Shown piece by piece: positions 2 to 9,784 of a stretch of DNA of 64,000 nt. A program made the position numbers and the translations under genes. The stretch comes from Kiritimatiellia bacterium (lineage in GTDB: Bacteria; Verrucomicrobiota; Kiritimatiellia; RFP12; UBA1067): NCBI GenBank assembly GCA_045537795.1, contig JAZSQE010000033.1, positions 17,469 through 81,468 of the forward strand. The letters are read 5' to 3'. How positions within the stretch are numbered: position 1 is the stretch's first letter; the number at the start of each line of letters is the position of its first letter. Below the pieces are notes generated by a model. The model did no database searches. It had not been told where the DNA came from and saw nothing but the letters and a program-made list of their open reading frames with translations.

Positions 2-2494
2 GACGGGCTGGAGGACTCCATCGACACGAATCCGCTTCAGCCAGATTCGGACTCTGACGGCATGAATGACGGTTGGGAGTATCGGTATGGATTCGATCCG
101 ACAGTCAACAACGCCTCTGACAACGACCCTGACAACGACATAGGGGCTGATCCCGACGGCGATGGACTGACGAACGGGCAGGAGTGCAACTTTGGCACAG
201 ACCCGCTCGATTCCGATACGGACGGCGATGGTGTGAGCGACGGTGCAGAAGTTGGGCAGAACAGCGATCCAACTGATTCTGCCGACGGCGGGCAGCCAAA
301 TAGCCGTGTACCTGCTCCGTTCACATTCGGCGATCCAAGTGGCAGTCATTCCGAGAAATATACTCTTGAGGTCACGCCGGTTTCAGGGGATGGCGAGACC
401 CCGTCATCGTTCTCTTGGCTCAACGAGAATTATGGACAATGCGAGACCAAGATTGCAATGCTTAAGCCGGGATGGAAGTATGAAGTCAGACTGTACCACT
501 CGGGGACGAACGGCTCCGGCGATGGCTATCCCGACTATGACTACGAGCTTGATTTTGCAGGAAACGATACGACCGACGGCGTCATAAAAGACGATCCTGA
601 TGGTTTGTTCGGAACCGACTATACGAGTGATTCCTTTGCGGGAGAAGGCAAGGTCGCATACGTTTACGCGCTTGCGCCGCCAAAGCTTGTGCCAGATTAC
701 AACCGCGACAGGGCAATCACGGATGATGACGTGAATAAAGTCATGCAGAAGAAGAAACTCCGCTTCTGGATAAACGATGACGAAGACGACGATTCCACCG
801 ATGGCAAGTACGCCGAATCGCCCAGTGTTGACATCCCCGGCGCTCTGACGGGCTGGTGGTTCGAGTTTGATGGACGTGATCCCGACTGGAACGACAGCAA
901 AGTGAACGGCTACCGCGATCTCATCGACTTTACCCCGGTGTTCATGGATGTCTCGACGATCCAGATGCTCCCGGAGAGGATTCGCAACAGTCTAACGTTC
1001 AAGCTCAGTCACGCTGCAGGGGCTGTAAACGTTGTGTGGTCTGACCTGCCGAAGTCATCCGTTGGCTTGTTTCAGAGAGGTAATGTTGGCGTGTGTGGAC
1101 GGAATCTGAACGAGGACTCCTACGAAGCGGAGACCGAGCGGGTCGGAGCCGACGGCATCGCCGTTCCTGATGCGCTTGTGGCGCAGATGAAGTCCTCTTC
1201 CTCAAACAAGGGAGTCGTGTTCATAGAGGGGCGCGAAGCGACTTCTGCTCCGCTGAAACTTGACATCTACTACAACGGTCAGAAGGTTGTGACTGGCGAG
1301 TTGCCTATGGATATTTCCTCTGTCGAGGAGATGTATCGTTGGCTTAATTCACGTGGGCTGTCTGGTGAGGGCGTGGATTTCCCGTCAAGGCTTGGCGAAC
1401 CACCCAATCGTCCAGACAGTGAGACTTCCGATCGCCACCTTGTGTTTGTTCATGGTGCCAATGTCACGCAAGACGGTGCACGGGGATGGGCGGCAGAGAT
1501 TTTCAAGCGCATGTGGCAGTCGGGGATGACGGCGAAGTTCACGGCCGTGACATGGAGAAGTGACATAGGTTCGGACGCGAACTATCAGGAGAATGTCTCG
1601 AACGCCTTTTTTACGGCAAGCGCCATCGCGCAGCAGATAAAAGATCTGCCGGGGGCCAAAGTCCTCATGGCGCACTCGCTCGGTAACATGGTTTGCTCAT
1701 CTGTGATACAGGACTACGAACTTGTGCCTGATTGCTATCTTATGTGTAATTCCGCTGTTCCAGCAGAGGCGTATGACTCAGACTCGTCCCTTCGCGTTCC
1801 GCAGCTCGTACATCCCGAATGGGTGGAATACCCGACGAACTCGTGGGCGTCGTGCTGGCACTGGCTGTTCAGGAACGAACCGAACGATGATCGCAGACTC
1901 CTTGGATGGCCGGGGCGTTTCTCCAATGTCGCGCAGTATGCGTTCAATTTCTATTCGACAGGAGACGAGGTGCTGGAACTCGCAAACAACAACAATGTCC
2001 ATTCTTGGACAGGCGTTTCCGATTCATGGGGCCATTATGCGTGGCACAAGCAGGAGTTGTTCAAGGGCAGAGGCGGCGTTGGCGGCACCGACTGGGCGGG
2101 CTGGAACATCGAGGAAAACAGGCTTGGCATCAACAAGATTTCGGTCACTGAGGCTCAGTCTATGACGGAGGCCGACTTCAGGACAAATACCGTTTTCTAC
2201 TGCTATCCGCCGAGCATGAACTCGACCAACATCGCCCTGCTCGTCAGAGGCGCGCATCTTGCGCAGGGGATTCCGGCACTTACGTCGGCGGCGGGACAGA
2301 TAAGATTCGGAGATACGAGATTACGCAACGATTCATTTGATTGTAACACAACCCTACAAATTCCTCGTCCTAATGGTTGGCCAGAGCGATCAGACTACCA
2401 AGGGCAATGGTGCCATTCCGACATGAAGGATGTCGCGTACTTCTACGTGTACAAGTTTTACGATAAAATAATCGAGAAAGGAAACCTGAAATGA
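2..2494 (+). CDS. Large secreted effector-like protein (5' end outside window): thrombospondin-type-3-like Ca-binding repeats plus a C-terminal DUF900/lipase-like alpha/beta-hydrolase module
   Basis: The frame is open from nt 2 (DGLEDSIDTNPLQPDSDSDGMNDGWE...), so ATG 62 is internal. Several DxDxDGxxDxxE-type repeats are present. The C-terminal third has HLVFVHGANV...TWRSDIGSDANY...LMAHSLGNMV (Ser nucleophile elbow) and QWCHSD near the end (candidate His). The stop overlaps the next ATG. Confidence 0.7.
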   Translation, partial: DGLEDSIDTNPLQPDSDSDGMNDGWEYRYGFDPTVNNASDNDPDNDIGADPDGDGLTNGQECNFGTDPLDSDTDGDGVSDGAEVGQNSDPTDSADGGQPNSRVPAPFTFGDPSGSHSEKYTLEVTPVSGDGETPSSFSWLNENYGQCETKIAMLKPGWKYEVRLYHSGTNGSGDGYPDYDYELDFAGNDTTDGVIKDDPDGLFGTDYTSDSFAGEGKVAYVYALAPPKLVPDYNRDRAITDDDVNKVMQKKKLRFWINDDEDDDSTDGKYAESPSVDIPGALTGWWFEFDGRDPDWNDSKVNGYRDLIDFTPVFMDVSTIQMLPERIRNSLTFKLSHAAGAVNVVWSDLPKSSVGLFQRGNVGVCGRNLNEDSYEAETERVGADGIAVPDALVAQMKSSSSNKGVVFIEGREATSAPLKLDIYYNGQKVVTGELPMDISSVEEMYRWLNSRGLSGEGVDFPSRLGEPPNRPDSETSDRHLVFVHGANVTQDGARGWAAEIFKRMWQSGMTAKFTAVTWRSDIGSDANYQENVSNAFFTASAIAQQIKDLPGAKVLMAHSLGNMVCSSVIQDYELVPDCYLMCNSAVPAEAYDSDSSLRVPQLVHPEWVEYPTNSWASCWHWLFRNEPNDDRRLLGWPGRFSNVAQYAFNFYSTGDEVLELANNNNVHSWTGVSDSWGHYAWHKQELFKGRGGVGGTDWAGWNIEENRLGINKISVTEAQSMTEADFRTNTVFYCYPPSMNSTNIALLVRGAHLAQGIPALTSAAGQIRFGDTRLRNDSFDCNTTLQIPRPNGWPERSDYQGQWCHSDMKDVAYFYVYKFYDKIIEKGNLK

Positions 2495-3552
2495 AAATGA
2501 ATACAAAGATAGCTTTTGTACTTCTGCTATTGGCTCTGCCGTGCGCCGTGTTCGCACGGAAGCTTCCGCCAGAAGTTGAACACGCTATGGGGCATGGGGC
2601 CGAGGCGAAAATCCGCCTAAAGGTCTGCGACGATACTGGCGCACCAGTGTCAAATGCAAGTGTGTGCGCCGGATTTGACATGCTGCCCAGACCGCATTCA
2701 GTTTATGGAAAGACCGATACGAATGGCGTATGTGTCGTCAAGGGGAAAACAAACGGAAACAAGGTTGTTTTCCTTGTAGGCAAGGACGGATATTATGGTT
2801 CTCGGAAGGAAATATCGTATGTTCCTATGTGGAAGGAACATGATGTGAAGGACGGCAAGTGGCAGCCATATGGTGCTGTGGAAAGTATTGAATTGCGCAA
2901 AATACGCAACCCTGCGCATTTGACAGTCTCATACTCGCGCGAATTCAATAACACGAAGGTAATTAACGCTTGGATAGGGTTCGATCTGGAGAAACGCGAC
3001 TTCGTTCAACCATACGGGAAGGGTGAGATTGCAGACCTCGAAGTTCTTTTTGACTGGGATGGGAAAACTTTTGCGGACTACAGAGGAATAGCTATGAAAA
3101 CTAGGTTTACTGAGAAATTTTCCGGTTATTATCAATGTGTGGGCAAGACAGTTAGTGAATTCAAAGGGCCATATTTTGCATTGCCTGATGCCACATATCA
3201 GCAAGATGCCGATTTCTATGAGCGTGTGATAATTGACCCAAATGCCTATGGGCGACGGTATGACAGAAGGTTCTTTGACGAGAACAAGTGCTGGATTGTC
3301 CGCAGTCGGTGCAAAGTTGATGCCGAGGGCAATCTTGTGTCAGCACATTATTCCATTGTAAATAATATAGAATTTTGTTATGACAAAGGCGGCGTCGTGT
3401 GTATCTGCGTTACTGGCGCGTTCAACCCAACTCCCAACGATACGAATCTTGAGGACATCGTGACAGCCGAGAGGGCGCGTCATTTTATCCGCCAGTGTGA
3501 GCCTCCGCCACCGCCAAGGAAAAAGAAACGCAAGTCCCTTTGGCCATTTTAA
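2491..3552 (+). CDS. Secreted protein P1, paralogue family of unknown function (prealbumin/CarboxypepD_reg-like N-domain, polybasic-WPF C-terminus)
   Basis: Signal peptide MKMNTKIAFVLLLLALPCAVFA/RK. KIRLKVCDDTGAPVSNASV...TDTNGVCVVKGKTNG looks like a carboxypeptidase-regulatory-like fold. ATGA overlap with the upstream stop (2491-2494). Ends ...FNPTPNDTNLEDI...RHFIRQCEPPPPPRKKKRKSLWPF. Confidence 0.8.
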   Translation: MKMNTKIAFVLLLLALPCAVFARKLPPEVEHAMGHGAEAKIRLKVCDDTGAPVSNASVCAGFDMLPRPHSVYGKTDTNGVCVVKGKTNGNKVVFLVGKDGYYGSRKEISYVPMWKEHDVKDGKWQPYGAVESIELRKIRNPAHLTVSYSREFNNTKVINAWIGFDLEKRDFVQPYGKGEIADLEVLFDWDGKTFADYRGIAMKTRFTEKFSGYYQCVGKTVSEFKGPYFALPDATYQQDADFYERVIIDPNAYGRRYDRRFFDENKCWIVRSRCKVDAEGNLVSAHYSIVNNIEFCYDKGGVVCICVTGAFNPTPNDTNLEDIVTAERARHFIRQCEPPPPPRKKKRKSLWPF

Positions 3553-3577
3553 GTACGATCGAGAAGGATAACGAAAT
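3546..3577. repeat. 32-nt direct repeat, copy A (methyltransferase 5' leader/RBS)
   Basis: attttaagtacgatcgagaaggataacgaaat matches 8275-8306 at 29/32 positions (hand count), same orientation. Confidence 0.8.
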
Positions 3578-4442
3578 GTCAAAGAACAAGACACTGTCAG
3601 CCGCGAAGAGCGCGAAGAACGACGAGTTCTATACACAGTACGCCGACATACAAAAGGAAGTAAACGCCTACCTGGACTACAATCCCGATACCTTTCGGGG
3701 CAAGACCGTTCTCTTGCCGTGCGACGATCCGGAATGGAGCAAGTTTACCCGCTTCTTCGCCGAGAACTTTGAGCGGCTTGGGTTGAAGAAACTCATTTCC
3801 ACAAGCTATGCCGCCGCGAGCAAGAAGTTCAAGGCGCCATATCAACTATCGCTTTTTGAGTCAGGGTCGCCGCAGTTTGATGCCACTAAGACCGAAGTGC
3901 GTGGCAAGATATTCGTCCTCGACCACGACACGAACGCCAATGGGCGCATCGACCTGGACGATCTGGGATGGAAGTATCTTGACGGCGATGGCGACTTCAT
4001 GAGTGATGAGGTGTGCAGACTGCGCGACGAGGCAGATGTCATCGTCACCAATCCGCCGTTCTCGCTGTTCAGGGAGTTTCTGGCATGGATATTGGGGAGC
4101 GGGAATGTTGATCTCGTGCAGAGACGCAGAGGCGCAGAGGTAGGGTCATGCGTCCCGCGTGACCGTGATGGGAATGGTTTAGCCACAAAGAACGCAAAGG
4201 ACGCAAAGGAGTTTTTGATAATTGGGAACATGAACGCTGTTTCGTACACAGAGGTGTTTCCGCACATTCAGGGAAATACAATTTGGCTTGGTGCAACTGG
4301 TTTCGCAACAGATATGGTGTTCGCCGTGCCCAAGGGAACGCAAGTTTCGCCCGCAGACAAAGCCAAAGCCGAACGACTTGGATATGTTGGCGATTACACG
4401 AGACTTGGCAATTCGTGCTGGTTCACTAACATGGAACATTGA
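3576..4442 (+). pseudogene. EcoRI-methylase-like N6-adenine DNA methyltransferase, 3'-truncated, with an in-frame ~35-codon insert
   Basis: KNDEFYTQY near the N-terminus and DVIVTNPPFSLFREF (NPPF motif IV). The ORF ends at NSCWFTNMEH*, exactly where homology to the hydrolase 3' end begins. By my recollection family members continue well beyond WFTN. RBS GAGAAGGA precedes ATG 3576. No restriction enzyme gene is adjacent. Confidence 0.6.
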
Positions 4443-4824
4443 CGAGAACATCTTTGGCGTGAACAAGATTTCCGTTGCGGAGGCTCATACAATGACGGAA
4501 GCCGACTTCAGAACCAACACCGTTTTCTATTGCTATCCGCCAAGCATGAACCAACCGACAATTCCGCTTCTTGTCAGAGGAGCGCTTCTTGCGCAAGGAA
4601 TCCCGGCGTTGACGCCGCCAACGGGTGCAACTGCATTTGGCAACGAGTTCTACGACGACAAAATGATCAACCTTAATGACACCTTGAAGATCGAGCGCCC
4701 CAATGCGTGGCCAGACAGAAAGAAATAGACAGGACGTTGGTGTCATTCCGACTTGAAAGATGTCGCGTATTTCTACGTGTTCAAGTTCTACGAAAAAGCG
4801 ATTGAGAAAGGAAACCTCAAATGA
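4432..4824 (+). pseudogene. Orphan 3' cassette: decayed copy of the last ~130 codons of the hydrolase gene (2..2494)
   Basis: WNIDENIFGVNKISVAEAHTMTEADFRTNTVFYCYPPSMN... parallels WNIEENRLGINKISVTEAQSMTEADFRTNTVFYCYPPSMN... (49/64 identical in this block, hand count). In-frame TAG at 4726-4728. The same frame then continues WCHSDLKDVAYFYVFKFYEKAIEKGNLK* (24/28 identical to the full-length tail). No start and no upstream hydrolase body. Confidence 0.75.
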
Positions 4825-5861
4825 AAAAGTCAACTATTATAGTACTCTTGATCGTGGTGTTGCTGCCATGCGCTGTGTTTGCGCGAAAGCTTAATCCTGA
4901 AGTACGTGAAGCAATTGAAAATGGCGCAGAGGCAAAGATTATCTTGAGGGTTCACGATGACATGGACGAGCCGGTTGCGAACGCAAGTGTCCGCGTTGCC
5001 ATGGACATGCCAACAGGCGAACACTCCGTATATGGTAGAACCGACACGAACGGCGTGTGTACTATTATCGGAAAAACAAACGGCTTCTACCTTGATTTCC
5101 TTGTAGGAAAAGACGGATATTACGGATCGCGCAAGAAAATTATATTTGCGAAAATGGGGGCGGAACATGATGTGAAGGACGGCAAGTGGCAACCATATGG
5201 AGAGAAGATGTCCATTCTCCTTAAGCCGATAAAAAATCCATTGGAATTGTGTGCTGTGACTGTCAAGGATTATAAGTTTACAGATGCAATTTGTAAATGG
5301 ATTGGATACGATCTTGAGAAAAACGATTTTGTAAAACCTTATGGGGTAGGAACTGTGTCGGATTTTGAGGTTTATTTGGATTGGGACAGAGTATATTCCA
5401 TCATGGATTGCAAACAGGCAGGGTATAAAATTAGATTCTCAGAGCCGTGGTCTGGTTATTGTTTGATGCAGATAGATCCTGAGAGCGAATTCCCGACGCC
5501 ATATAATGCAGTAACGAATACTACATTTCTGCAATATGCAGAGTTCTATGATAGATATGAGGGTGAGCGGGTGAGGAACACATTTGACAAATCGAAATGC
5601 TGGGTGATCCGCAGTAGATGCAAAATCGATGAACACGGACGGTTGATTTCGGCAAATTATGCTGTTGTTCGACTTCTTGGAATGTCGGGCAGCCGAGAAT
5701 TGAAGGCTGGCTTTGGCTTCGTAGGTGCGTTCAACCCCACGCCCAACGACACGAACCTTGAAGACATTGAGACGGCTAAGCGCTCGCGTCACTTCATCCG
5801 CCAGTGCGAACCGCCGCCACCATCGCCTAAGAAGAAACGGAAAACAATTTGGCCGTTCTAA
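4821..5861 (+). CDS. Secreted protein P2, paralogue of P1
   Basis: Signal peptide MKKSTIIVLLIVVLLPCAVFA/RK. Collinear with P1 (DGKWQPYG, KPYG.G, RSRCK.D..G.L.SA.Y, FNPTPNDTNLEDI, RHFIRQCEPPPP). Ends SPKKKRKTIWPF. ATGA overlap with the orphan cassette stop (4821-4824). Confidence 0.8.
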   Translation: MKKSTIIVLLIVVLLPCAVFARKLNPEVREAIENGAEAKIILRVHDDMDEPVANASVRVAMDMPTGEHSVYGRTDTNGVCTIIGKTNGFYLDFLVGKDGYYGSRKKIIFAKMGAEHDVKDGKWQPYGEKMSILLKPIKNPLELCAVTVKDYKFTDAICKWIGYDLEKNDFVKPYGVGTVSDFEVYLDWDRVYSIMDCKQAGYKIRFSEPWSGYCLMQIDPESEFPTPYNAVTNTTFLQYAEFYDRYEGERVRNTFDKSKCWVIRSRCKIDEHGRLISANYAVVRLLGMSGSRELKAGFGFVGAFNPTPNDTNLEDIETAKRSRHFIRQCEPPPPSPKKKRKTIWPF

Positions 5862-5881
5862 TGTCTGTTAGAGGGAATATT

Positions 5882-6307
5882 ATGAAACGCCGTCGCTTTA
5901 TTGTTTTTTGCATTGCACTTGTTGCCGTGTCGTTAGTATGCGGCTGTATAAGCGATGTCCCAATCTTGCCACGCTACCGCCCTGTGGACAAACGCGATGG
6001 CCGTCTCTTCTGTTATACGCGTGATTTTGTCGATGGCAATGGCCGTCAGGTCTGTTTCTTCCGACAGCCTCTTGAGGCTTTGATGCCGGGCGGCAACGGA
6101 CAATGGGGGATAACGCCTATGCAGCTAGTTGTGGGAGTGTTTGTCGGTGTCCCGCTTGCATTGGCTGATTGGTTTGTGACAAGCCCCGTTGTTGATACAG
6201 TTCTCTTGCCGTATGATATCACGTGCAATTTCCAATCGGATAACGGGGGTGAATCGTTGCAGATTCCACATTCAAGGAATCCTCAAATCCAAGGAGGTGC
6301 GCAATGA
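5882..6307 (+). CDS. YceK/YidQ-like (DUF1375) lipoprotein
   Basis: MKRRRFIVFCIALVAVSLVCGC has a lipobox-like Cys. GVPLALADWFVTSPVVDTVLLPYDI resembles the YceK signature (...LDLPFSLVFDTLLLPIDI). ATG 5882 is preferred over the ORF-track start at 5849. The stop overlaps the P3 ATG. Confidence 0.55.
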   Translation: MKRRRFIVFCIALVAVSLVCGCISDVPILPRYRPVDKRDGRLFCYTRDFVDGNGRQVCFFRQPLEALMPGGNGQWGITPMQLVVGVFVGVPLALADWFVTSPVVDTVLLPYDITCNFQSDNGGESLQIPHSRNPQIQGGAQ

Positions 6308-7329
6308 AGAGGATGGAAATTATTATGTCGGTCGTGGTGGTATTCATCACGTCGTGCGCCATTTGCGATGAATCGACTGAATTCGCAAGGGCGTTGAATG
6401 CAGGTGCGAATGCAAAGATGATACTTCGCATAGTCAATGCGGACGGAGTTCCCATTCCTGATGCTGAAGTGGAGTTCGGCTTCTGGAACAACTATTCTCA
6501 AGGCGGATTCAAGAATTCCATATTGCGCTCTGGTACAAATGGAGAGTGCGTTGTGACTGGCCGTTGCAATGGTTCGTGTGTATGGAATGTCACAAAGCCG
6601 GGCTACTATCGTTCTCATGCCGAGTGGTCTTTGTCCGAAACACAGTCCGATCCGAAAGTCGTGGATGGTAAATGGCAACCATATGGTGCGACGAGAGAAA
6701 TAGCACTTAAACAAATCGTTTCTCCTGTGGATTTGCCCAGCCTTGAATACACCCTTATTAAGTGCCCGGTGTTTGACGAATGGCTGGGATTTGATCTTGG
6801 ATGTTATTCTTGGGTGAAGCCGTATGGTAGCGGTCTCCACTCAGATGTGTTGATTAGGCTCCATGAAGAAGGTAACGGGGACACGGCGTTTTCAGCCTCG
6901 CTTGAGTTGTGTTTTACCAATAATCCATTTGCAGGGGCATATGTCCTGAAAAAGGATGCTTATTCCGAAATGAAGAGTGTCTATCATGCTGACACCAATG
7001 CTACATATCAGACGAAGTTCCTGTACTCGTTAAGTGTGGACAGCAAAGGGAGGCGTAATGCAAACGAGTTGTCTGAAGACTCATATTTGGTATTTAGAAC
7101 AAGAACCGAAGTTGACAAAGAGGGCAATCTGCTTTCTGCTCATTACGGAAAGATATATGGAAAATGGGGTTTTTATGGTGGGATGCGGGCCGAGGCCTTT
7201 TTCTTTAATCCAACACCCAACGATCCCAATCTCGAAGATGCCAAAACCGCTGAGAGTTCGCTTCAGCGTCAACGCCAGCGTGAGGCACTCCCCTACAAAA
7301 AGAAGCGCAAGTCACTTTGGCCGTTCTGA
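6304..7329 (+). CDS. Secreted/lipoprotein P3, divergent paralogue of P1/P2
   Basis: MKRMEIIMSVVVVFITSCAICDE (lipobox-like ITSC). Shares DGKWQPYG, WLGFDL, KPYGSG, R.R.EVDKEGNLLSAHY, FNPTPNDPNLED and the terminal YKKKRKSLWPF. ATGA overlap at 6304-6307. Confidence 0.75.
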   Translation: MKRMEIIMSVVVVFITSCAICDESTEFARALNAGANAKMILRIVNADGVPIPDAEVEFGFWNNYSQGGFKNSILRSGTNGECVVTGRCNGSCVWNVTKPGYYRSHAEWSLSETQSDPKVVDGKWQPYGATREIALKQIVSPVDLPSLEYTLIKCPVFDEWLGFDLGCYSWVKPYGSGLHSDVLIRLHEEGNGDTAFSASLELCFTNNPFAGAYVLKKDAYSEMKSVYHADTNATYQTKFLYSLSVDSKGRRNANELSEDSYLVFRTRTEVDKEGNLLSAHYGKIYGKWGFYGGMRAEAFFFNPTPNDPNLEDAKTAESSLQRQRQREALPYKKKRKSLWPF

Positions 7330-7374
7330 TGTCAATGTCACAAGGAATGCGATAGCATCGAAAGGAGAAAACCG

Positions 7375-7890
7375 ATGAACATCCTAATTCTGCAGGGCTC
7401 GCCCCGTGCGAACGGTAACACGGCATGGATGGCCGAGGAGTACCGCAAGGCGGCAGCGGCTGCTGGGCACAAGGTGACGCTCGTCGACGTGGCGCACAAG
7501 AAGATCGCGGGCTGCATGGCCTGCGAATACTGCCACGGCAAGGGGAACGGAACCTGCGTCCAGAAGGATGACATGCAGGAACTCTACCCACTCCTGGACG
7601 AGGCGGAGGTTCTCGTCCTAGCGTCGCCAATCTACTACTTCACCATGTCCGCGCAGATTCAGGCACCGATCCAGCGCATCTATTGCATGAGCAAGCCGGG
7701 CAAGCTGAAGAAGATGGCGCTTCTCGCGTCCTCCTATTCGCCCGACGTATACGACGGCGCAATCGGCGAGTATCGCGGCATCCTCAACTACTGGGGTGTC
7801 GAGGATACGGGCGTCGTCACGGCCAAAAACGCCGAGCAGAAGACGGACGAGACCCGCGCCAAAATTCTCCAGCTCTTTGAAAAACTGTGA
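7375..7890 (+). CDS. Iron-sulfur flavoprotein (Isf-like), NADPH-dependent FMN reductase/flavodoxin fold
   Basis: MNILILQGSPRANGNT... is the FMN_red-type N-terminus. The compact Cys motif CMACEYCHGKGNGTC (CX2CX2CX7C) matches Isf proteins. RBS AAAGGAG lies upstream. Confidence 0.7.
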   Translation: MNILILQGSPRANGNTAWMAEEYRKAAAAAGHKVTLVDVAHKKIAGCMACEYCHGKGNGTCVQKDDMQELYPLLDEAEVLVLASPIYYFTMSAQIQAPIQRIYCMSKPGKLKKMALLASSYSPDVYDGAIGEYRGILNYWGVEDTGVVTAKNAEQKTDETRAKILQLFEKL

Positions 7891-7908
7891 TTACGTTTTT
7901 CGGGCGCA

Positions 7909-7937
7909 TTGACTCGGCAAGAGCGAGATGATAAAAT
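7909..7937 (+). promoter_or_regulatory. Predicted sigma70-type promoter TTGACT-17-TAAAAT (TG-extended) with no obvious gene
   Basis: ttgact (7909-7914), a 17-nt spacer ending ..atga, and taaaat (7932-7937). It lies in the 590-bp non-coding stretch after the flavoprotein gene. Confidence 0.4.
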
Positions 7938-8274
7938 CCCTTTGTGTTGAGTTTAGGGTCGGTATCGTATGGTCGTAGAAAAGCAGCAGATTCTCTACGG
8001 TTCAGATGTCGCCGCCCCGACCATCTTCAAACGGTACTAAGAGAATCTCTCCTTAATTGTTCAGTGTGTCAATAGGGCCATTGAAGCGGCGACGCCGTGG
8101 CTTGTCGGCACGGCTGCAGGATTGTTTGTCCTGTGGCTTATCATGCTCTGCTACAAGGCCAAGCCGTTTGCAAAGGAGCTAAAGTGGTTCTTTGGCCTGA
8201 CGCCCTTGCACAAGTTTGTCGTCATTTGCACCGTCAGCTTCTTCACCCTCTGGTGTACGGATGGAGGTAGTGCA

Positions 8275-8482: not shown

Positions 8483-9784
8483 CTACGGTTCCAGGAGAAT
8501 CCGGCGGAGTTTTTCGATATCCGCGTCGGTAAAGCCGCAGTCGCGAAAATAAGCCTCAGCCTTCTCGCGCGTCGTTTCACCGGGATAGCGCCCAAGAACA
8601 TCGTTGTAAAGCTGGAGAAAAAGATCCTTGTGGCAGAACCAGTTCCCGGGATTTGTAAACCCGGAACATTCCCAATCGCGGTAAAGCTCCTCGTCGTCGA
8701 CACCCAATACCGCTTCGATGATAAACGCGAGAGAGCCAGTGCGATCCTGGCCGCCGATGCAATGAAACACGATCGGATAATTGGACTCATCGAGAAAAAC
8801 ATCGAGACATGCCTTTGTCATCTTCATTCCGCGAGGCCTGCCGAAGCCGGAATATGCGGACGATGGCGAATGGATCCACTTCACGCGGTCCCCGAGGGGC
8901 GACTGGCTCATACCGGCGATCTCACCGTCATTGCGCAGATCGAGATCGGTTCGGATACCGAGAGTGTCGAGCATAATCGCGCGGGACTCGTCGCTCAGGC
9001 GCTCCCTGCCTCGCGCATTTGCAATCGGTACGCGATGCCAGTCGTTCGACGGCCATGAGCCTGAATATATCTTGGCCATGTGCTTCGCCTGCCAAGGAGC
9101 GCGGTTGGTCAGCGTTCCTGCGGCGAATTCAGCCCTGCATTCCGCCCATGTGAGAAAATCGATGTCTTCGGGATTGTTATTGAGACCCGCCGAACGGTAT
9201 ACGAGCCCCTGACGAATGCGCCGGGAGTTCATCGCGACGCGGCCTCCGATATCGCGGACGTTAGGGACGCCGGGAACGCGAATTAGACGAGGGGCTGTCG
9301 CGTCGGTTTCAAAATCGCGCACGGCTCTCGCGACCGTCCTACCGCCTACGACGGCAGAAACGATGACGCGATATTTCTCGCCGATCATGAGATTATCGAA
9401 GAACGCGTAAGGCTCGCGGGCGTCGACAACGCGCACGGCGCGATCTTCCCCGACTCCGACATGGCGAAGTTCGACTGAAAAGACAGGCGCAATGCCGCCC
9501 TTCTCGCCTGTCCACCGCCAGGAAACGAGAACCGGCTGCGGCTCGTTTTTGTCGAGCGCCAGCTGAGCGCGCTCACCCGCGTCGACGAACTTCTCAACCC
9601 TCTCTTCACGGGGCAGCTTAAGATATTCAAGCTGACGCTTCGAAAGGAGTTTCACCTTCTCTTCTCCGCCTTCAGGCTGAAGAATCTCAAGACTCGGCGA
9701 AGCCGAAGCCGCCAAGACGCCCATTCCTACAACGCCCGCCAGAAACAAACCTAAACTAAAACGCATTATTTTACCGCCTTTCAC
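8483..9784 (-). CDS. Secreted protein-tyrosine-phosphatase-like protein (CX5R P-loop; Y_phosphatase3-like)
   Basis: IVFHCIGGQDRTGSLAF carries HCxxGxxR(T). N-terminal signal peptide (MRFSLGLFLAGVVGMGVLAASA). The start is either GTG 9784 (GTGA overlap with the upstream stop) or ATG 9766. Confidence 0.65.
   Translation of the reverse strand: MKGGKIMRFSLGLFLAGVVGMGVLAASASPSLEILQPEGGEEKVKLLSKRQLEYLKLPREERVEKFVDAGERAQLALDKNEPQPVLVSWRWTGEKGGIAPVFSVELRHVGVGEDRAVRVVDAREPYAFFDNLMIGEKYRVIVSAVVGGRTVARAVRDFETDATAPRLIRVPGVPNVRDIGGRVAMNSRRIRQGLVYRSAGLNNNPEDIDFLTWAECRAEFAAGTLTNRAPWQAKHMAKIYSGSWPSNDWHRVPIANARGRERLSDESRAIMLDTLGIRTDLDLRNDGEIAGMSQSPLGDRVKWIHSPSSAYSGFGRPRGMKMTKACLDVFLDESNYPIVFHCIGGQDRTGSLAFIIEAVLGVDDEELYRDWECSGFTNPGNWFCHKDLFLQLYNDVLGRYPGETTREKAEAYFRDCGFTDADIEKLRRILLEP

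Follow-up and report, generated by a model that had tools for sequence, protein, structure and literature searches.

Three paralogous genes in a 64,000-nucleotide stretch of a Kiritimatiellia genome (contig JAZSQE010000033.1 of assembly GCA_045537795.1, positions 17,469 to 81,468; hereafter the window) encode proteins, named P1, P2 and P3, whose common C-terminal end KKKRK[ST][LI]WPF is kept by selection at the protein level and is an accessory C-terminal module of a few subfamilies, which marks neither the family nor the genome as a whole. P1 to P3 are part of an unannotated, highly diversified and previously undescribed putative toxin/immunity system of the Kiritimatiellae, which combines giant TSP3-repeat proteins with a superfamily of immunity proteins. 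The tail itself is tentatively read as a lipid-free polybasic/aromatic tether to the membrane, to which we give somewhat less than an even chance.

Selection on the terminal peptide

The original prediction, made from the window sequence without database searches, described the tail as invariant on all three paralogues and proposed that the terminal peptide is under selection. Translation of the three gene ends (Table 1) confirmed the common end, and the word invariant holds for the three window genes and fails for the family, in which most homologues carry no tail. The bodies of P1 to P3 are 35-54% identical (54% for P1/P2 and 37% for P1/P3) and their tails are identical at 8-10 of 10 positions, a value that is also reached against homologues from other genomes with bodies of 35-60% identity. 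At the DNA level the three window tails differ synonymously in Lys, Arg, Pro and Phe codons as well as in the stop codon, and among 24 distinct tail DNA versions, a sample partly selected by the motif, at least two codons are used for each conserved residue except single-codon Trp, together with all three stop codons. The synonymous differences therefore place the conservation at the peptide level and not in a fresh gene-conversion tract. With the tail identity over diverged bodies, they bear out the proposed selection on the terminal peptide, and chance is not the reason for the sharing.

A DNA element keeping the tail was considered and rejected, as no terminator lies after any of the P1 to P3 genes and the promoter and terminator counts are at the level of shuffled sequence. 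Weak similarity after the three stop codons extends for about 25 nt only, and by our own reading the A-rich Lys codons of the tail do not form a conserved slippery heptamer. No other open reading frame (ORF) of the window has a KKKRK-x-x-WPF end. The FNPTPND(T/P)NLED block, which lies about 32 residues before the tail and was likewise pointed out in the original prediction, is indeed present in P1, P2 and P3; it is a signature of the family core and does not belong to the tag, because tail-less members carry it too.

A putative lipase toxin and its immunity-like partners

P1 is encoded directly behind the 3' part of a gene for a giant TSP3-repeat protein, the C-terminal hydrolase domain of which is the putative toxin. 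Of the 76 genome loci compared (designated by L numbers below), 64 have a family member that is preceded, at a distance of at most 200 nt, by the end of a hydrolase domain homologous to that of window 1262-2494, and in 33 of these 64 the domain can be seen to terminate an ORF of 900 or more amino acids (aa). The ATGA junction between hydrolase and immunity gene recurs across loci, at least two paralogues are present in 36 of the 76, and short hydrolase 3' fragments follow the first paralogue in 13. Two orphan cassettes were recognized in the window, namely 4429-4824 with P2 and 6284-6307 with P3. The former fragment, directly upstream of P2, retains an EKGNLK-stop/ATGA junction onto that gene, and the latter consists of the last codons of the ORF 5882..6307 (...IQGGAQ-stop, with an ATGA overlap with P3), which are a remnant of the 3' end of a P3-cognate hydrolase of the L055 type. 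This diverged hydrolase type precedes P3-like genes in L009, L055 and L080, and tail-bearing members with no hydrolase nearby occur as orphans in L052 and L057.

A toxin-like C-terminal domain with an adjacent downstream gene, orphan C-terminal fragments and polyimmunity arrays were thus all found, a layout that polymorphic toxin systems with orphan cassettes have in common (PMC3482391). An N-terminal trafficking domain of the kinds known from such systems, including those of the type V, type VI (T6SS) and type VII secretion systems, was not detected. The tandem paralogues, the hydrolase 3' fragments and the orphans lead us to regard P1 as the cognate immunity protein, and P2 and P3 as the products of orphan immunity genes.

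The hydrolase domain is predicted from its sequence to have lipase activity. Its invariant residues are a Ser in AHSLGN, a lipase-type GxSxG nucleophile motif in an alpha/beta-hydrolase fold, and a His in the terminal W.HSD. Pfam assigned TSP3_bac to the upstream protein, with DUF900 just above and Abhydrolase_6 below the cut-off, and a PDB sequence search with the hydrolase returned no relative. An AlphaFold2 (AF2) model of moderate quality (predicted local distance difference test (pLDDT) 66.8) found its nearest folds by Foldseek in the Legionella phospholipase PlaB, lipases of Pseudomonas and Proteus and cutinases, all of them weak matches, and the LipA/LipB complex 9g8u was among the structures matched. 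The full-length giant proteins of 1350-2450 aa are rich in acidic calcium-binding repeats and begin with two hydrophobic helices, a hairpin of two transmembrane (TM) segments with a basic loop between them. Such a hairpin would anchor the protein in the inner membrane and, by the positive-inside rule, leave its bulk outside the cytoplasm.

A further family of signal-peptide proteins of about 190 aa (DTEVSTNV ... AFGRDADGDG ... WN..RV.RRG), for which no Pfam family exists, was observed in 17 loci, encoded either directly ahead of the giant toxin gene or right behind the immunity array (Table 1), and may represent an accessory or secretion partner.

In total, 744 homologues of P1 were collected, all of them unnamed and without a Pfam domain, and a profile search over 1.84 billion cluster representatives gave 2,916 clusters at E<=1e-3; the superfamily thus comprises about 2,900 clusters at 50% identity and has no Pfam model. 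A genome scan located the family in gut and rumen Kiritimatiellae metagenome-assembled genomes (MAGs), with a few MAG records under other names, and an exact-sequence query with P1 retrieved a 1.6 kb contig only. Scans of P1, P2 and P3 with Pfam, and of P1 and P3 with NCBIfam, returned neither a family nor a sorting-signal model, and literature searches on Kiritimatiellae toxins and on periplasmic polybasic anchors yielded nothing specific. A Sec-type h-region is present in 236 of 241 full-length members and a lipobox-like motif in only 4 of 241. The idea that the tail is a simple substitute for a lost lipobox was discarded, since the whole family, tailed or not, is devoid of lipoboxes.

The AF2 model of P1 (pLDDT 91.9) consists of a signal helix (2-20), a transthyretin-like sandwich (37-108), a beta-rich domain (129-312) that ends in the FNPTPNDTNLE signature, and a C-terminal helix (323-335), from which a PPPPP linker leads to the tail. 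After this confident helix the pLDDT drops from 71 to 49, and the C-terminal 18 residues are disordered. When the model was compared with the PDB by Foldseek, matches were limited to the N-terminal sandwich of generic transthyretin-like type, and the main domain had no solved relative.

Distribution of the tail within the family

Most relatives end right after FNPTPNDTNLE (...NLEPK/PKR). Long-form members possess an extra helix, D.ETA.RSRHFIRQCEPP, followed by variable ends that include KKKRKSLWPF, GKGNLK, VLR, KQR, ERNRRKQ and others. In a sample biased towards P1, the canonical tail was found in 35 and a variant tail in 17 of 225 distinct members, and tail-type ends were found in about four or five of the 150 best cluster representatives (KKKRKSLWPF, KKKRKKLWPFR, RKRKPIWPFR and KKKTRSKWVFW). 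The variants, among them KKPRKWLPW, KKRGKWFPWW, NKRKFKLWPW and QKRKSFWQF besides the last two just named, keep the composition of the tail and not its sequence. Two or three deep subfamilies, whose linkers differ (CEPPPPP.. versus REALPY), contain the canonical form, which is kept across many MAG species.

On a tree of the protein core, tail state is scattered and requires 23 parsimony changes, compared with about 47 when the labels are shuffled. Genes that end in GKGNLK reproduce the hydrolase-to-immunity junction gaaaggaaacctgaaATGA letter for letter and have the next immunity gene behind them (Table 1). These junction copies, together with the scattered tail state, therefore identify the stretch after CEPP as a recombination junction and the tail as a modular 3' cassette. 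A link between the tail and one hydrolase subtype was rejected, as tail presence is independent of hydrolase type: the canonical tail accompanies hydrolases that are 30-34% identical to that of the window and about 33% identical to each other, and tail-less relatives accompany hydrolases that are 76-77% identical to it.

The tail outside the family

When 241 million metagenome records were scanned with a degenerate DNA pattern for KKKRK-x-x-WPF-stop, 20 loci were hit, 15 of which come from the P1 to P3 family. Four of the remaining five resemble chance hits, one at the end of a low-complexity ORF of 137 residues and the other three within a 31-codon ORF or in sequence that is AT-rich or riddled with stops. 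The fifth (L093 4135-5268, reverse strand) encodes a SurA/PpiC-type periplasmic chaperone ending EEEEDVKKKRKWFWPF. All of its 26 closest homologues (P0241-P0266), which where named derive from Acidobacteria or Acidiferrales MAGs, finish with an acidic linker, then a polybasic cluster and a short hydrophobic terminus, with tails such as KKKRKWYWPF, KKRKKFLWIF, KKRKRILGIPMPW and KKKKKRFIIF, and more distant homologues have a Lys-rich tail only. The acidobacterial chaperones belong to soil bacteria and their tails are convergent with that of P1 to P3; we know of no description of a polybasic/hydrophobic tail on such proteins.

Among the non-family ORFs of the 76 related loci the tail is absent, with the exception of one chimeric remnant, L055 9577-9987. 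This ORF was dismissed as an independent second tail family, because it joins a fragment of HsdR_N (the N-terminus of a type I restriction R subunit) in frame to ...PPYKKKRKPLWPF, the 3' end that remains of a disrupted immunity gene. An HNH_5 gene lies just upstream; L055 and the window have the end of the immunity array and a downstream FMN-reductase gene in common. A sorting tag or regulon shared by many proteins, as the original prediction had suggested looking for, is not borne out, for across the window, the related loci and the metagenome scan the tail was, the chaperones apart, restricted to a single family, and there to a minority of the members. The shared neighbouring processing enzyme that had been envisaged was not found either, as no such gene is conserved at the family loci.

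Possible functions of the tail

In the mechanism that we favour, P1 to P3 would be Sec-exported, non-lipidated inhibitors that neutralize the lipase-like domain of the giant inner-membrane-anchored TSP3 proteins, with P1 as the cognate copy and with P2 and P3 as orphan copies retained after the decay of their toxin genes. Following a flexible Pro-rich linker, the disordered cationic/aromatic peptide would bind anionic phospholipid membranes at their interfacial region, through electrostatic attraction of the Lys/Arg cluster and insertion of Trp, Phe and Leu into the interface. Such a tether would keep the immunity protein at the membrane surface, the site of action of the lipase, and would fill the role that a lipid anchor plays in the lipoprotein immunity proteins of other lipase toxins. 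For instance, Tle1 is toxic in the periplasm when associated with a membrane, and the immunity protein for it, Tli1a, is a lipoprotein of the outer membrane (PMC13133936). The tail has a charge of +5 to +6, and for the adjoining five-residue Trp/Phe/Leu segment the Wimley-White interfacial energy is favourable, at about -2.7 to -3.0 kcal/mol. A membrane-binding anchor, one of the options listed in the original prediction, is the best-supported reading and the most economical one, because it accommodates an exported and non-lipidated protein, a disordered cationic/aromatic tail, a presumed target that is a lipase acting on membranes, variants that preserve composition and the convergence with the chaperones.

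Several points weigh against the tether. Membrane binding is suggested by tail composition only, the immunity role is itself deduced from gene arrangement and sequence, and five hydrophobic residues with five charges predict only a modest affinity. KKKRK, in which no K-to-R swaps occur within unbiased samples, and WPF are stricter than a physicochemical anchor needs, and such excess conservation may point to a specific partner protein. Since more than 90% of the family clusters do without the tail, any benefit it confers would be conditional. In Pfam and NCBIfam scans, moreover, the giant proteins carry no known trafficking or secretion domain or marker besides the TSP3 repeats.

A specific partner could be the hydrolase itself, if WPF-COOH and the basic cluster acted as a docking or plug peptide that binds the hydrolase cleft (acyl pocket, active site) or the acidic TSP3 repeats and raises the affinity of the complex. 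The position of the tail on a flexible linker of a protein inferred to bind the hydrolase, the strict conservation of the motif across subfamilies, as for contact with a conserved site, and the abundance of acidic calcium-binding repeats in the giant proteins would all suit docking. This option of the original prediction is nevertheless unlikely, as the identical tail crosses hydrolases of about 33% identity and is missing beside those of 76-77%, the canonical form persists in orphan genes that lack a toxin in their vicinity, most family members lack it and unrelated SurA-like chaperones have the same kind of tail; a contact with a conserved active site is still conceivable. Outer-membrane proteins typically end in an aromatic-x-Phe terminus, which W-P-F-COOH matches in its last three positions, and canonical copies strictly preserve both WPF and the place of the stop codon, as would suit a specific reader in the envelope, either a PDZ protease of the DegS/DegP/Prc/Ctp type or the beta-barrel assembly machinery, that controls turnover or placement. 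Apparently intact variants, however, end WPFR, WLPW, FPWW, WQF and WVFW, so that a free Phe carboxylate is not required; the preceding region is predicted to be disordered and has no beta-strand pattern, and no PDZ or protease neighbour is conserved at the family loci, which makes this reader improbable. Still less probable is a new dedicated sorting signal for surface or vesicle export or for covalent attachment by an unrecognized machinery. Strict conservation at the extreme C-terminus and the failure to match known signals would fit it, yet the tail is found on a single family and on no other Kiritimatiellae protein in the sampled loci and the metagenome scan, it has neither a TM segment nor a conserved processing-enzyme neighbour, and it is often lost or replaced by recombination at the CEPP junction. 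It is conceivable, though we doubt it about as much as docking, that the tail belongs to an unrecognized class of C-terminal envelope-localization signals of diderm bacteria, lacking a TM segment or lipid and read by an envelope factor or a defined lipid, which was recruited independently by the Kiritimatiellae immunity proteins and the acidobacterial SurA-like chaperones. Signals of this class would begin with a linker that is Pro-rich or acidic, continue with a polybasic cluster and close with a short aromatic end.

The most exotic proposal, a eukaryotic-type nuclear localization signal (NLS) on a host-directed protein, is next to impossible in our judgement. The monopartite consensus K-K/R-x-K/R is matched by KKKRK in all three proteins, and P2 indeed contains the string PKKKRK, identical to the core of the simian virus 40 (SV40) large-T signal. 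What speaks against an NLS is that P1 to P3 have Sec signal peptides and lie in an immunity-gene context with no delivery system detected, that the organisms are known only as gut and rumen MAGs with nothing found that points to an intracellular lifestyle, that the periplasmic chaperones share this kind of tail, some with KKKRK itself, and that most family members are tail-less. Lipase genes with a dedicated downstream partner gene are known, as in LipA/LipB, and the translational coupling seen here is in keeping with a lipase-specific helper, a foldase (Lif) or secretion partner anchored by the tail. We regard this as improbable, to much the same degree as the PDZ or assembly-machinery reader, since divergent tandem paralogues, orphans lacking a hydrolase and decayed 3' fragments are hallmarks of toxin/immunity diversification (PMC3482391), and since a beta-rich fold with a cleavable signal peptide differs from the N-terminally anchored, all-helical Lif. 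Finally, the tail might be functionless and have travelled between paralogues as a hitch-hiking 3' cassette through gene conversion, for which the recombination junction after CEPP, the scattered tail state and the GKGNLK endings copied from the hydrolase-immunity junction can be cited. Such a passive origin is very improbable, because synonymous sites in the tail look saturated with the amino acids fixed, and the tail is kept across subfamilies with differing linkers and across many MAG species.

Window features and neighbouring genes

The features of the window, together with examples from related loci, are collected in Table 1. The product of the gene between P1 and the next cassette matched Pfam EcoRI_methylase with an E value of 2.7e-77, with part of the model covered. 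Intact copies of this methyltransferase and a GmrSD_N/HNH endonuclease gene adjoin the arrays in L002, L018, L049, L071 and L077, and the islands therefore also gather restriction and defence genes. In L045 and L065, immunity genes are followed by longer ORFs (292-373 residues from stop to stop) to whose N-terminal parts the lipoprotein-like ORF 5882-6307 is related, with direct comparison made for L045 only, and its family may constitute a second immunity or accessory family.

Table 1. Coordinates of the toxin, immunity and tail features in the window, with examples from related loci
Feature	Coordinates	Strand	Remark
Giant TSP3-repeat protein gene, 3' part	2..2494	+	Frame open to base 2 at the window start
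Lipase-like alpha/beta-hydrolase domain, putative toxin	1262-2494	+	C-terminal ~410 aa of the TSP3-repeat protein
P1, putative cognate immunity-like protein	2491..3552	+	ATGA start/stop overlap with the hydrolase gene
P1 tail KKKRKSLWPF	3520..3549	+	Translation of 3520-3552 including stop
Truncated EcoRI-like adenine methyltransferase gene	3576..4430	+	Between P1 and the next cassette
Pseudogenized hydrolase 3' fragment, putative orphan toxin remnant	4429..4824	+	In-frame TAG at 4726-4728
P2, putative orphan immunity-like paralogue	4821..5861	+	
P2 tail KKKRKTIWPF	5829..5858	+	Preceded by P, giving PKKKRK; translation of 5829-5861 including stop
Truncated lipoprotein-like ORF, 141 aa	5882..6307	+	Family found after immunity genes elsewhere
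P3, putative orphan immunity-like paralogue, diverged subfamily	6304..7329	+	
P3 tail KKKRKSLWPF	7297..7326	+	Translation of 7297-7329 including stop
Linker-tail peptide			PPPPPRKKKRKSLWPF
Immunity genes ending ...CEPPGKGNLK-stop	L003 11017-11035; L004 11017-11035; L011 2154-2172		Exact junction copy: GAAAGG resembling a ribosome-binding site, then ATGA overlap
Signal-peptide family of ~190 aa, examples	L021 289-1068; L025 2171-2842; L045 4661-5266; L016 1678-2307		13 further loci

Beyond the FMN reductase gene, a short ORF (8122-8250) aligns over 43 aa, at 51% identity, with the two-TM hairpin at the N-terminus of the L048 giant toxin and, judged by this similarity, looks like the remnant of another toxin gene start. 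A signal-peptide protein encoded on the reverse strand at 8483-9784 contains HCIGGQDRTGS, a CX5R signature of protein-tyrosine/dual-specificity phosphatases that was read from the sequence. The G+C content of the toxin-3'/immunity island (2001-8000) is 0.48-0.51, compared with 0.55-0.63 in most of the window, which is consistent with a mobile or fast-evolving island, and a second low-GC stretch at 18-22 kb (0.45-0.48) encodes a secreted repeat protein of 1010 aa.

Significance and comparison with known systems

The context is probably a larger result than the tail. With a putative toxin/immunity system in the Kiritimatiellae, which are common in gut and rumen but uncultured, antagonism between bacteria becomes testable in this phylum. 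Should the tail be a peptide-only tether, it would be a third bacterial means of holding periplasmic proteins at the membrane, besides lipidation and TM or amphipathic-helix anchors, and a ten-residue module that is easily gained or lost at a gene 3' end by recombination could then serve as a tagging tool. An immunity protein positioned at the membrane by a polybasic/aromatic peptide is most likely a variation on a known principle.

The closest parallel in function is offered by the T6SS Tle/Tli pairs, represented by P. aeruginosa Tle1/Tli1a (PMC13133936), which share with the present system a GxSxG lipase-type hydrolase that is, or here would be, toxic at membranes in the periplasm, an exported immunity protein encoded immediately downstream, tandem or degenerate extra immunity copies and, as proposed here, an immunity protein positioned at the membrane. 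In contrast to those pairs, neither a Tle Pfam family nor a T6SS marker was detected, with no VgrG, PAAR or Hcp in the flanks examined, and the TSP3-repeat protein that ends in the toxin domain measures 1350-2450 aa and has a TM hairpin at its N-terminus. The immunity proteins, of an unrelated family, are not lipidated and have a peptide instead of a lipid as the proposed tether. In overall architecture, the system resembles the polymorphic toxin systems, with a large protein bearing a C-terminal toxin domain, an adjacent immunity gene, orphan immunity arrays with toxin 3' fragments and recombination at conserved junctions; lipase-like Tox-ABhydrolase domains are included among those systems (Zhang et al. 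2012, PMC3482391). It departs from them in having no recognized trafficking domain, and in that all observed C-terminal domains have the same hydrolase fold. Likewise, P1 combines a beta-sandwich and a beta-rich domain with a cleavable signal peptide, unlike Lif with its N-terminal membrane anchor and all-alpha-helical structure.

As for the tail, sortase and exosortase signals and the C-terminal domain (CTD) of type IX secretion system (T9SS) substrates are comparable in placing a conserved motif at the extreme C-terminus of exported proteins, along with a basic cluster. The original prediction was right to set the tail apart from LPXTG, PEP-CTERM, GlyGly-CTERM and the T9SS CTD, as a disordered tail of about 10-18 residues with no TM segment and no NCBIfam or Pfam match is of another kind. 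LPXTG, PEP-CTERM, GlyGly-CTERM and PGF-CTERM signals have a TM helix of about 20 residues, whereas here the basic cluster stands before, not after, only five hydrophobic residues; sortase and exosortase signals are found on many unrelated substrates within one genome, along with a cognate sortase, as opposed to one protein family here, and the T9SS CTD is a folded beta-sandwich of about 70-100 residues, as opposed to 18 disordered C-terminal residues. With the SV40 large-T NLS, PKKKRKV, P2 shares the identical string PKKKRK in a bacterial, predicted periplasmic context.

Lipid-free polybasic/aromatic membrane peptides are known from the K-Ras4B, Rit and MARCKS regions and from the Trp/Pro-rich cationic peptides indolicidin and tritrpticin, and Pep-1 is a designed carrier composed of a Trp-rich segment, a spacer and KKKRKV. 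The tail resembles this class in its 5-6 Lys/Arg residues beside a short Trp/Phe/Pro segment, its unstructured nature and its composition-conserved variants. It differs in being the C-terminus of a predicted periplasmic protein with proposed membrane binding, the members of the class acting at the eukaryotic cytoplasmic leaflet or as free peptides. E. coli PBP5 and PBP6, which are anchored by C-terminal amphipathic helices of about 18-20 residues, provide the counterpart in the periplasm, a Sec-exported soluble domain held on the membrane face by its C-terminus with neither a TM segment nor a lipid, as is proposed for P1 to P3. In contrast to these helices, the tail comprises ten residues, contains Pro, is predicted to be disordered and is non-helical in the AF2 model.

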